Assembly: GCA_032718475.1 (NCBI GenBank)
Contig: JAUCBJ010001366.1
Span: forward strand, 1-40,599
Direction of reading: 5' to 3'
DNA length: 40,599 bases
Source of the DNA: Nemertoderma westbladi
Taxonomy: Eukaryota; Animalia; Xenacoelomorpha
Positions 22,179-31,100 of this stretch are shown in pieces (positions within the stretch are counted from its first letter, which is position 1; each line of letters begins with the position of its first letter). The notes under the pieces are model-generated. The model worked only from the letters and a program-made list of their open reading frames with translations, was not told where the DNA came from and ran no database searches. The translations under genes and the position numbers were made by a program.

Positions 22179-25100
22179 CTGGAGAATAAAAATAAAGGTC
22201 GTCGTGTTCTATTAATTGCAAAAGAATAATTACCTATCATAATTACCTGGTGGAAAACATTATCGCCCGGGTGAAAAACATTTATGTACGAAACCTCGAA
22301 TGGATCTCTATGTGCGAAATCCTTTTTCGTCAATTTTGCGGGTGTAAAAGGGCATTTGTGTAAAATCATGTAAAGAAAATTTACTTAAAGATAATTTACT
22401 AAATAAAAATGGCATTTGATGGTGCCATTACCACCAACTTACATCGATCATAATAAAATGTCAAGTACTATGAGATAGAACTGATAAAGAGCTTTCTTCA
22501 CCAGAGATACCAAATATATTAATTTTCGTTGAACCAATAAAGACTTACAGTATAAGACATTTTTTTTATCGAATGCCCTTTTGCCTAGTAACCGGCGCTA
22601 TGTCAAGTAATGGAATAATGTATTTTTAGGTTTGTACTTTTACTTTTTCCTAAGTTACATAAGTCATTACTTAATAATGGTATGGAACATATGAGATATT
22701 ATGAACATTAACATATATTGCTATCTGTAAATATCCACGCAATGTAATTGGATTGATCCGTTACCTGAATGATACAACTGGAATGACATATGACTAGCGT
22801 CTATGGCGACGCTGATTGGTCCGATAGTTGCCGCGGCGCTCTTTAGATCATCCTCGTTCCCGCTCTCTACATCAACGTGGGACTTACAAGTCCCCCCGCG
22901 GCTTTGGGAGTGATATCGGCAAGGGAAATCGTCCTGAAATACATTCATTAATAAATTAATGCCACTTGAATTATAATTATAAATAAAAAAAATCATTAAT
23001 AATATTTTAAACTACTACTAGGATCGGCATGCTGCATTGCAGCTGCATTTTTAAGAATCCTGTGCCGGCTTGTCAACAAAATTGCACCGCCACAACTCCC
23101 TATCACCCATGACATTTGCTAGATCATCCGCATCTTTAAGGCCAGTGTCCTTTAAGATGCGTCCCAAGAAAGTCATGGGCTGTCCACCATGCTTATTCAC
23201 TCCATGAGGCTGTCAAAGTACAAGATTATGCACTGGCTGGTCCTCACGGCGAAAGCAATGTTCTGCAAAGCGGAGGCGATTTTGTTCTAGTGTCAAGCTT
23301 GGGGGAACCAATGAGACACCTCCAATGTTATATAGTGTCTGGTTGGAGATGTGTGCATTGTACTTGACACAATGAACCCGGCGTAGCATTCTTGTGAATG
23401 TGCCATCCAGAGATCAAGTTAGAGATGCAGTTAGAGCCCAGCATGGACTCCCGTAGAGGAGTACTGGAACTACTGCTGCTCTAAATACTCGGACCTTAAG
23501 TTTCCGATTAATTCTTGGTGACCTCCAAATCCTGGAAAGCCTATTCAAGGCTGCCCATGCCTTTCTCTTAAAAAATGAACATTAATAATATTTTAAAACA
23601 TGAACATTAATAATATTTTCAAGTAATAACTTTTTTCCTGTATATTACGAATACCTAGTGTGTTTTCAGAGGTCTTGTCGTAAGGTCAAACAAGGGGGAG
23701 GGAGACTGACGCAATTGACATTCAACCCACTCCAGGGTAAAATCGACACGAATAACAACTGCTGATTGCGAGAACAATACCGCCTTTGCTAGTGCTACTC
23801 ACCATCGTCCGTATTGTTTCAGTTAGAAAAGTCATTCCACTATTGATGATTAATGATTAACAAAAATATATTAATGTATCGTGTCCACTCTGGTATGGGT
23901 ATCTATCTTCCACTCACTTACCTCCCCATGTCCACTCTGGTATGGGTATCTATCTTCTACTCACTTACCTCCCCATGTCCACTCTGGTATGGGTATCTAT
24001 CTTCCACTCACTTACCTCCCCATGTCCACTCTGGTATGGGTATCTATCTTTCACTCACTTACCTCCCACGTGTCCGTCCACTCTGGTATGGGTATCTATC
24101 TTCCACTCACTTACCTCCCCATGTCCACTCTGGTATGGGTATCTATCTTCCACTCACTTACCTCCCCATGTCCACTCTGGTATGGGTATCTATCTTCTAC
24201 TCACTTACCTCCCCATGTCCACTCTGGTATGGGTATCTATCTTCCACTCACTTACCTCCCCATGTCCACTCTGGTATGGGTATCTATCTTTCACTCACTT
24301 ACCTCCCACGTGTCCGTCCACTCTGGTATGGGTATCTATCTTCTACTCACTTACCTCCCCATGTCCACTCTGGTATGGGTATCTATCTTCCACTCACTTA
24401 CCTCCCCATGTCCACTCTGGTATGGGTATCTATCTTTCACTCACTTACCTCCCACGTGTCCGTCCACTCTGGTATGGGTATCTATCTTCCACTCACTTAC
24501 CTCCCCATGTCCACTCTGGTATGGGTATCTATCTTCCACTCACTTACCTCCCCATGTCCACTCTGGTATGGGTATCTATCTTCTACTCACTTACCTCCCC
24601 ATGTCCACTCTGGTATGGGTATCTATCTTCCACTCACTTACCTCCCCATGTCCACTCTGGTATGGGTATCTATCTTTCACTCACTTACCTCCCACGTGTC
24701 CGTCCACTCTGGTATGGGTATCTATCTTCCACTCACTTACCTCCCCATGTCCACTCTGGTATGGGTATCTATCTTTCACTCACTTACCTCCCCATGTCCA
24801 CTCTGGTATGGGTATCTATCTTCCACTCACTTACCTCCCCATGTCCACTCTGGTATGGGTATCTATCTTTCACTCACTTACCTCCCCATGTCCACTCTGG
24901 TATGGGTATCTATCTTTCACTCACTTACCTCCCCATGTCCACTCTGGTATGGGTATCTATCTTCCACTCACTTACCTCCCCATGTCCACTCTGGTATGGG
25001 TATCTATCTTCTACTCACTTACCTCCCCATGTCCACTCTGGTATGGGTATCTATCTTCCACTCACTTACCTCCCCATGTCCACTCTGGTATGGGTATCTA

Positions 25101-28100: not shown

Positions 28101-31100
28101 CATGTCCACTCTGGTATGGGTATCTATCCTCCACTCACTTACCTCCCCGTGTCCACTCTGGTATGGGTATCTATCTTCCACTCACTTACCTCCCCATGTC
28201 CACTCTGGTATGGGTATCTATCTTCCACTCACTTACCTCCCCATGTCCACTCTGGTATGGGTATCTATCTTCCACTCACTTACCTCCCCATGTCCACTCT
28301 GGTATGGGTATCTATCTTCACTCACTTACCTCCCCCGTGTCCGTCCACTCTGGTATGGGTATCTATCTTCCACTCACTTACCTCCCCATGTCCACTCTGG
28401 TATGGGTATCTATCTTTCACTCACTTACCTCCCCATGTCCACTCTGGTATGGGTATCTATCTTCCACTCACTTACCTCCCCATGTCCACTCTGGTATGGG
28501 TATCTATCTTCCACTCACTTACCTCCCCATGTCCACTCTGGTATGGGTATCTATCTTCCACTCACTTACCTCCCCATGTCCACTCTGGTATGGGTATCTA
28601 TCTTCCACTCACTTACCTCCCCATGTCCACTCTGGTATGGGTATCTATCTTTCACTCACTTACCCCCCCCCCCCCCCCCGTGTCCGTCCACTCTGGTATG
28701 GGTATCTATCTTCCACTCACTTACCTCCCCATGTCCACTCTGGTATGGGTATCTATCTTCCACTCACTTACCTCCCCATGTCCACTCTGGTATGGGTATC
28801 TATCTTCCACTCACTTACCTCCCCATGTCCACTCTGGTATGGGTATCTATCTTTCACTCACTTACCTCCCCCGTGTCCGTCCACTCTGGTATGGGTATCT
28901 ATCTTCCACTCACTTACCTCCCCATGTCCACTCTGGTATGGGTATCTATCTTCCACTCACTTACCTCCCCATGTCCACTCTGGTATGGGTATCTATCTTC
29001 CACTCACTTACCTCCCCATGTCCACTCTGGTATGGGTATCTATCTTCCACTCACTTACCTCCCCATGTCCACTCTAGTATGGGTATCTATCTTTCACTCA
29101 CTTACCTCCCCCGTGTCCGTCCTCTCTGGTATGGGTATCTATCTTCCACTCACTTACCTCTCCATGTCCACTCTGGTATGGGTATCTATCTTCCACTCAC
29201 TTACCTCCCCATGTCCACTCTGGTATGGGTATCTATCTTTCACTCACTTACCTCCCCCGTGTCCGTCCACTCTGGTATGGGTATCAATCTTCCACTCACT
29301 TACCTCCCCATGTCCACTCTGGTATGGGTATCTATCTTCCACTCACTTACCTCCCCGTGTCCACTCTGGTATGGGTATCTATCTTCCACTCACTTACCTC
29401 CCCATGTCCACTCTGGTATGGGTATCTATCTTCCACTCACTTACCTCACCATGTCCACTCTGGTATGGGTATCTATCTTCCACTCACTTACCTCCCCATG
29501 TCCACTCTGGTATGGGTATCTATCTTCACTCACTTACCTCCCCCGTGTCCGTCCACTCTGGTATGGGTATCTATCTTCCACTCACTTACCTCCCCATGTC
29601 CACTCTGGTATGGGTATCTATCTTTCACTCACTTACCTCCCCATGTCCACTCTGGTATGGGTATCTATCTTCCACTCACTTACCTCCCACGTGTCCGTCC
29701 ACTCTGGTATGGGTATCTATCTTCCACTCACTTACCTCCCCATGTCCACTCTGGTATGGGTATCTATCTTCCACTCACTTACCTCCCCATGTCCACTCTG
29801 GTATGGGTATCTATCTTCCACTCACTTACCTCCCCATGTCCACTCTGGTACGGGTATCTATCTTCCACTTACTTACCTCCCCATGTCCACTCTGGTATGG
29901 GTATCTATCTTCCACTCACTTACCTCCCCATGTCCACTCTGGTATGGGTATCTATCTTCCACTCACTTACCTCCCCATGTCCACTCTGGTATGGGTATCT
30001 ATCTTCCACTCACTTACCTCCCCATGTCCACTCTGGTATGGGTATCTATCTTCCACTCACTTACCTCCCACGTGTCCGTCCACTCTGGTATGGGTATCTA
30101 TCTTCCACTCACTTACCTCCCCATGTCCACTCTGGTATGGGTATCTATCTTCTCTGTCGATACCGTGGTTACTTTCCACATACTTGAAGGCCTGGTCCAT
30201 GAGTCCCCCACTGCATCCCATATTACCGAACTTTCGGGAACAATCGATAAGGTTCTGTTCGCTGAGTGATACCAGTGTACCGGTACTCCTGAATACCTGA
30301 CCCTCCAGAGATCCAGTCTAAGATATAAATATATTTATTACTGTTGAAGTACACTTCATACTTTTAATATTAAGTGTTGTGTTTGTATGTAACGAAATTG
30401 TTGGCGCAAGACAGTTGAAAACAAAAAGGATAAATTTATTGAGACTGTCACATCATATTGATGTGTGGTCTTCATTCGTGTGTTCTCATAAATTTTCAAT
30501 CTCATAAATGTTCTCAAGTTTTCATAAATAATGCTATCAATGTTATCAATCGCTTACAAGTACTAAAGGCCCAGCAGGATCCACATTGCGCTTGGTTCAT
30601 TAACTTACAGTACTAAAGGCCCAACAGGATCCACATTGCGCTTGGTTCATTAACTTACAGTACTAAAGGCCCAGCAGGATCCACATTGCGCTTGGTTCAA
30701 TAACTTTCAGTATTAAAGGCCCAGCAGGATCCACATTGCGCTTGGTTCATTAACTTACAGTACTAAAGGCCCAGCAGGATCCACATTGCGCTTGGTTCAT
30801 TAACTTACAGTACTAAAGGCCCAACAGGATCCACATTGCGCTTGGTTCAATAACTTTCAGTATTAAAGGCCCAGCAGGATCCACATTGCGCTTGGTTCAT
30901 TAACTTACAGTATTAAAGGCCCAACAGGATCCACATTGCGCTTGGTTCATTAACTTACAGTACTAAAGGCCCAGCAGGATCCACATTGCGCTTGGTTCAA
31001 TAACTTACAGTACTAAAGGCCCAGCAGGATCCACATTGTGCTTGGTTCATTAACTTACAGTACTAAAGGCCCAACAGGATCCACATTGCGCTTGGTTCAA

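Follow-up and report, generated by a model that had tools for sequence, protein, structure and literature searches.

A minisatellite carrying 130 splice donors in intron 3 of a predicted cathepsin L-like gene of Nemertoderma westbladi

How does a gene keep splicing an internal exon at the right place when the intron behind it repeats the end of that exon, with its 5′ splice site, 129 more times? The question is raised by a 40,599-nt stretch of Nemertoderma westbladi DNA (assembly GCA_032718475.1, contig JAUCBJ010001366.1, positions 1-40,599 of the forward strand; hereafter the window), in which most of intron 3 of a predicted cathepsin L-like gene is taken up by a minisatellite that we call array A. 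We consider it likely that array A is a minisatellite born at this locus, with a unit that lies across the border between exon 3 and intron 3 of a cathepsin L gene which is itself intact, that the first donor is the one used, and that the 129 downstream copies are probably passive and removed with the intron.

Array A and its host gene

Array A (23882-30152, minus strand) was detected by Tandem Repeats Finder (period 47, 130.6 copies, 93% matches) as a 47/52-nt minisatellite, in whose unit the final 36 nt of coding exon 3 are followed by the first 11 nt of intron 3. An earlier interpretation made from the letters alone (the sequence-only reading) had reported about 130 consensus donors stacked in one cathepsin L intron, each overlapped by a second donor-like GTGAGT 4 nt downstream. 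Our counts bear this out: there are 130 GTAAGT donors on the minus strand, AG precedes 129 of them, and GTGAGT overlaps at +4 in 129 of the 130. The context (the slash marks the splice site) is GAG/GTAAGTGA for 128 donors and GAG/GTAAGTAA for one; the remaining donor, GGG/GTAAGTGA, lies within a long G run. The word AGGTAAGT occurs 129 times within the array and nowhere else on the minus strand of the window. The 129 full units measure 47 nt (102 units), 52 nt (24), 46 nt (two) or 61 nt (one) and fall into 17 types, interleaved in a non-random order; among those of 47 nt, the mean distance to the commonest unit is 0.4 substitutions. The first unit (30152-30106) spans the junction used by the spliced contig described below, at the authentic intron 3 5′ splice site GAG/GTAAGT (30111-30119, minus strand; last exon base 30117, first G 30116). 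The donor had also been called optimal for pairing with U1, which held in part: 8 of 11 positions form Watson-Crick pairs with the U1 consensus as generally given, so the site appears near-optimal but not perfect.

Of the 7,183 nt of intron 3, the array takes up 6,235 nt and an insertion 586 nt; other sequence makes up the remaining 362 nt. At 23840-23881 (minus strand), past the last unit, which is truncated, we observed a 39-nt AT-rich stretch followed by 7 nt that match the bases behind the unit's donor; it looks as though filler had taken the place of the last donor. Long open reading frames (ORFs) of up to 2,138 aa cross the array on the plus strand; they were rejected as genes and are a by-product, because the unit is free of stops in every frame.

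The gene model comprises five coding exons on the minus strand, and exon numbers here count coding exons. Exon 1 (31739-31978) encodes the signal peptide and the I29 propeptide, exon 2 (31409-31588) the catalytic Cys motif, and exon 5 (21970-22178) the catalytic His and Asn motifs and the stop codon. Exon 3 (30117-30317, 201 nt) has array A downstream and a second repeat, array B, upstream, while exon 4 (22765-22933) begins behind the intron 3 acceptor at 22934. All introns are of the GT-AG type, the 332-aa frame has no internal stop, and every coding exon matches Pfam I29 or Peptidase_C1. With both domains, the Cys, His and Asn motifs and an open frame, the product is predicted to be a cathepsin L-like papain-family protease. 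Exon 3 comes closest to cathepsin L-type enzymes in the PDB, exon 4 to fibroinase and cathepsin S, and for this reason orthology to vertebrate CTSL is not established.

Computation of the reading frames agrees with the earlier claim that the second donor (first G 30064) adds 52 nt and shifts the frame. Behind it stands an in-frame TGA (30057-30059, minus strand), which is read whenever donor 3 or a later one is used. Among the 261 donor-like hexamers of intron 3 only one, the most upstream, gives intact protein, just as the sequence-only reading had proposed, and 257 include an in-frame TGA. The other 3 of the 261 lead instead to a stop in exon 4, 102-119 nt ahead of the last junction. Altogether, in 260 of the 261 cases a premature stop arises, at a distance of over 50 nt from the last junction on its upstream side. 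The exon closed by later donors would measure 253-6,396 nt, vs. 201 nt for the first donor.

To follow the array in sequencing data, four runs of the same organism from three samples were compared: X1 (sample S1), X2 and X3 (S2) and X4 (S3). The window may derive from run X1; S2 is an independent sample. Contigs of the array A and array B units were found in the DNA runs X1, X2 and X3, and the array A unit is thus present in two DNA samples. In X1 a 76-nt contig of the array A unit reached a depth of 1046.7, and unique flanks stood at 12.8-27.4; the ratio of the two is 38-82, and from the assembly 82-93 would be expected. The ratio was 12-17 in X2 (for the three unit contigs among those listed) and about 25-31 in X3 (159.6 over 5.1-6.5). 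Ratios are therefore lower in S2 than in S1, and the two S2 runs lie about twofold apart; contig depth is no copy number. One S2 contig extends to the same 3′ flank of array A.

The 586-nt insertion (22994-23579, minus strand, the gene's sense) is a high-copy sequence that ends in a short tail of TAG repeats and has an AT-rich flank in duplicate. Its peptide and tail suggest that it is the decayed 3′ end of a long interspersed nuclear element (LINE)-like reverse transcriptase frame. An 858-nt X2 contig joins 22993 to 23580 and skips 22994-23579, so that S2 has an allele without the insertion, which is probably a presence/absence polymorphism. We also noted a 306-nt contig of X3 which matches 22675-22832 alone, with 3 differences and at ten times the local depth; it is possibly a paralogous or repeated piece.

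Upstream of the gene lies an intronless 653-aa CERT-like ORF (32319-34280, minus strand) with PH and START domains. Its best matches show 43-49% identity and are mostly vertebrate, with no close relative, among the 120 matches listed. One base ahead of the cathepsin ATG an acceptor-like pyrimidine run with AG was seen (31979-31992, minus strand), and the gene may have a 5′ non-coding exon within 500 nt behind the CERT stop.

Donor use in a spliced contig

Run X4 contains a spliced contig of 2,196 nt at a depth of 300.8. Position 22933 stands at record position 1486 and 30117 at 1487, a direct join with no added base; exon 3 runs to 1687, and from 1688 the contig continues into the end of exon 2. 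The contig skips the 586-nt intron 4 at CT..AC, and the bins within intron 2 are empty. It carries a single copy of the array B unit, and the sequence at its loose ends belongs to exon 4 and exon 2. Length arithmetic alone (1687+180+240) leaves 89 nt, which fits exons 2 and 1. From these spliced joints and empty intron bins X4 reads as RNA-derived. The spliced contig is the only one in X4 that matches 30062-30600, a region matched by 9, 26 and 7 contigs, unit contigs included, in X1, X2 and X3, respectively. No contig of a repeat junction, the extended form, was found in X4. The sequence-only reading had proposed to set the 30117>22933 junction against extended junctions, and in this contig the comparison comes down on the direct join. 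In one spliced contig of one run, then, splicing at the authentic site persists and the first donor dominates.

This result fits the earlier suggestion that donor choice is first-come or driven by exon definition, and so do F7 minigenes, in which the upstream donor comes first (PMC1557585). Random donor choice, under an assumed decay of 100- to 5-fold, predicts a junction-word depth of 16,000-316,000 vs. 301 for the mRNA, and no such contig was found. It is excluded, if S3 has the long allele. The proposal that much of the output is lost to nonsense-mediated decay (NMD) and that copy number acts as a dial is not supported. A more limited leak is a different matter: 30-50% use of donor 2 under 20- to 100-fold decay would give a depth of 1-15 vs. 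301, which contigs could miss, and a donor 2 leak of up to tens of percent could be hidden by decay and contig filtering.

Compared with fibroinase, about four extra residues are found at the exon 3/exon 4 junction (30117-30128 and 22931-22933, minus strand). This loop insertion is real, because the spliced contig confirms the junction, and it may reflect an old shift of the donor.

Origin and tolerance of the arrays

The sequence-only reading did not mention two further arrays, one in intron 2 (18 units) and one in which the stop codon of a transporter is amplified 243 times. Array B (30553-31459, minus strand) is a 50-nt minisatellite of 18.2 units, each derived from the last bases of exon 2 together with the donor of intron 2. 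An in-frame TAA (31402-31400) stands directly behind its donor; GTAAG is kept in 14 of 18 units, and GT is lost in 4. Array C (5747-19330, plus strand) extends over 13.6 kb with 242.7 copies of a 56-nt unit; the unit holds the stop codon, and the codons just before it, of an MFS transporter ORF without introns (4177-5799, plus strand). The first poly(A) hexamer after this stop was seen at 19640, so that the transporter's 3′ untranslated region is very long or ends at a non-canonical site. In arrays A, B and C alike the gene is kept intact by the first copy, while the 3′-most copy is damaged. A fourth, 19-nt AT-rich array (1-1194) has at least 62.8 copies and runs off the window edge; no coding anchor is visible for it. 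Five duplications in non-coding sequence, of 83, 56 and about 153 nt (1722-1894, 38931-39046 and 37505-37943, respectively) and of 31 and 25 nt, stayed at 2-3 copies. The longest word common to the units of the four arrays is 7 nt; each array thus grew from its own site, and a common mobile core was rejected. Intron gain by tandem duplication of an AG/GT site was likewise rejected for introns 2 and 3, since the units hold intronic bases absent at the start of the next exon; the unique AT-rich sequence ahead of the two acceptors (235 and 362 nt) also speaks against it.

We infer that array A began as a 47-nt duplication at the short microhomology GAA, which would then have grown by slippage or unequal exchange. 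It would be tolerated as the first copy leaves exon 3 intact and the first donor wins, probably by being transcribed first and by pairing across a normal 201-nt exon. Leaked transcripts would carry a premature stop and would be likely targets of decay, so the cost would be small, and a regulatory role need not be assumed. Arrays B and C would be accounted for by this filter as well: in array B the first donor keeps exon 2, and in array C the first stop ends the transporter. There is no sign that the spare donors are kept by selection: of the nine columns that vary among the 102 47-mers, none lies in the 9-nt donor (P = 0.12), and the GT losses of array B affect 4 of its 18 units.

Several points weigh against this explanation. 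The evidence on splicing consists of one spliced contig from one sample, S3, which may or may not carry the array, and the automatic label of X4 is DNA. Rare variants are lost from contigs. Exon end and unit have 36 nt in common, more than the 31 nt of a word; the donors therefore cannot be distinguished by the contig path alone, and the case rests on the missing junction contigs. The array A donors are stronger than those of F7, and perfect-consensus pseudo-sites did compete in F7. Two downstream copies are used as well in 6-16 and CBS (PMC1557585), and a reference title, the title alone, links the CBS repeat to lower CBS activity (PMC2630376). Finally, a survival filter leaves unexplained why all three fully visible large arrays (3/3) sit on coding 3′ ends.

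The last point leads to the alternative that survives best, although we regard it as unlikely: a mutational process linked to transcription or splicing might preferentially expand seeds at coding 3′ ends, and the arrays would be its footprints and not only survivors of a filter. Coding-end arrays reached 18, 131 and 243 copies vs. 2-3 for the non-coding duplications. Tolerated 50-nt seeds that straddle a coding 3′ end make up about 2%, which gives P of about 1e-5 to 3e-4 for three such arrays, a post hoc value from one selected window. The enrichment survives weighting for GC content: with only ends outside arrays counted, 84 of 3,010 tolerated 50-mers with GC ≥0.46 straddle a 3′ end. Against such a process stand the single window, picked for its oddity, and the 19-nt array with its many copies and no visible coding anchor. 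Acceptor-side repeats of this kind are in print for the lancelet globin gene BflGb6 (PMC3087553/PMC3902484), so the donor or 3′-end polarity is not strict. This process concerns the origin of the arrays and is compatible with use of the first donor.

Rather unlikely, in our judgement, is leaky donor choice combined with NMD, in which donor 2, donor 3 or the +4 GTGAGT would be used in a sizeable share of transcripts and longer alleles would lower cathepsin L output. The near-universal premature stops would make any such leak a target of decay, identical near-consensus donors should compete better than those of F7, downstream copies are used in CBS and 6-16, and the depth of 1-15 computed above is low enough to be dropped from contigs. 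Repeat length moreover affects splicing at many human loci (PMC10078293). Yet X4 holds no extended contig, monomer number had no effect in F7, and no selection on spare donors was seen. The known leaks stop at the nearest one or two copies (PMC1557585), so copies 4-130 would add nothing and a leak would not scale with copy number. That both ideas are true together is quite improbable: a transcription- or splicing-coupled process would have to drive coding-3′-end seeds, donor or stop, to tens or hundreds of copies, and the 130 donors would have to leak enough for array length to be a heritable cathepsin L dial hidden by NMD.

There is very little to recommend the view that array A is an assembly artefact or much inflated. 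A 15-G run in one unit resembles a read error, and the depth ratios in X1 (38-82) and X2 (12-17 for the listed contigs) fall below the assembled multiplicity (82-93), though contig depth does not count copies. The 17 unit types are interleaved in non-random order, unit contigs at many times the unique-flank depth come from X1 and from the independent S2 (X2 and X3), and an S2 contig reaches the same 3′ flank. Least credible of all are a U1 sink and stepwise removal by recursive splicing, both raised by the sequence-only reading: although every unit ends in AG/GT, the core of a recursive site, and offers eight U1 pairs, the unit is 70% purine and lacks a pyrimidine tract (pyrimidine share 0.28 before AG/GT and 0.17-0.44 before the AGs of the unit, vs. 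0.56-0.89 at the four real acceptors), folding of the exon 3 end with the first units gave no special fold (z -0.51), intron 3 has no AATAAA or ATTAAA on its sense strand to shield, and 130 donors on a few nascent transcripts are a small number beside a cell's U1 pool, given the abundance generally ascribed to U1. We found no evidence for a sink.

Elsewhere in the window, a small element (34695-35365) has 29-nt inverted ends and a short frame with an SDQGREF motif, which is presumably integrase-like.

Known systems of boundary-spanning repeats

The sequence-only reading had treated this layout as unusual, but it is already in print for F7, CBS, 6-16 and the lancelet mirages. Array A has in common with boundary-spanning minisatellites its head-to-tail units of 10-100 nt, a terminal unit over the true boundary and a reiterated splice signal. 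A search of the open-licence literature for this cathepsin L case found no paper. With one internal exon between 18 and 130 copies of real exon ends, the locus puts upstream-first donor choice to an extreme test set by nature, and in the presence of these near-consensus donors the message of the cathepsin L gene is nevertheless spliced correctly. The range of boundary-spanning minisatellites thereby widens to another animal lineage, and 4.5 kb away a stop codon has been amplified in a similar manner. Its importance would be greater if long arrays were drawn to donors and stops genome-wide, or if allele length changed expression.

The closest human counterpart is the 37-bp variable-number tandem repeat (VNTR) of F7 intron 7, where 5-9 identical donors are present and splicing takes the most upstream one alone (Borensztajn et al. 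2006, PMC1557585). As in array A, the first unit lies over the exon/intron boundary, identical donors follow, and the most upstream alone serves. In minigenes with 1-6 or 8-12 monomers the splicing pattern did not change; perfect-consensus pseudo-sites did compete, with 70-90% use (PMC1557585). The two differ in copy number (5-9 vs. 130 units), in donor strength (CV 74, a weak site, vs. near-consensus AG/GTAAGT) and in the exonic share of the unit (4 vs. 36 bases), and in the cathepsin L gene the preceding intron is arrayed too. Exon ends and donors are also reiterated in the minisatellites of CBS intron 13 (15-20 units), 6-16 intron 2 (25 pseudo-sites), lamin B2 and PDGF, as summarised in the same paper (PMC1557585), in far fewer copies than in array A. 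Of these, CBS and 6-16 leak to two downstream copies, whereas none was seen for array A at contig resolution. The internal tandem repeats described where exons meet introns in duplicated human genes, with units of about 30 bp and 4 copies on average (De Grassi and Ciccarelli 2009, PMC2812944), resemble array A in that minisatellite expansion at an exon border lengthens the intron. They often change the protein or create introns, neither of which is shown for array A.

Among invertebrate-type genomes, the lancelet 'mirage' minisatellites of Adh3, the globins BflGb6 and BflGb9, troponin C and PGBD5 are tandem copies of exon-intron boundaries that reportedly leave splicing undisturbed and whose edge copies are described as divergent (PMC3087553, PMC3902484). 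In these respects they match array A, with its divergent edge copy and its normal splicing. They are of variable length, with 3-6 units in BflGb6, and occur on both donor and acceptor sides, whereas the Nemertoderma westbladi arrays are far longer and include one at a stop codon. Array A is therefore a very large and probably harmless case of a kind of repeat that human and lancelet genes had already shown.

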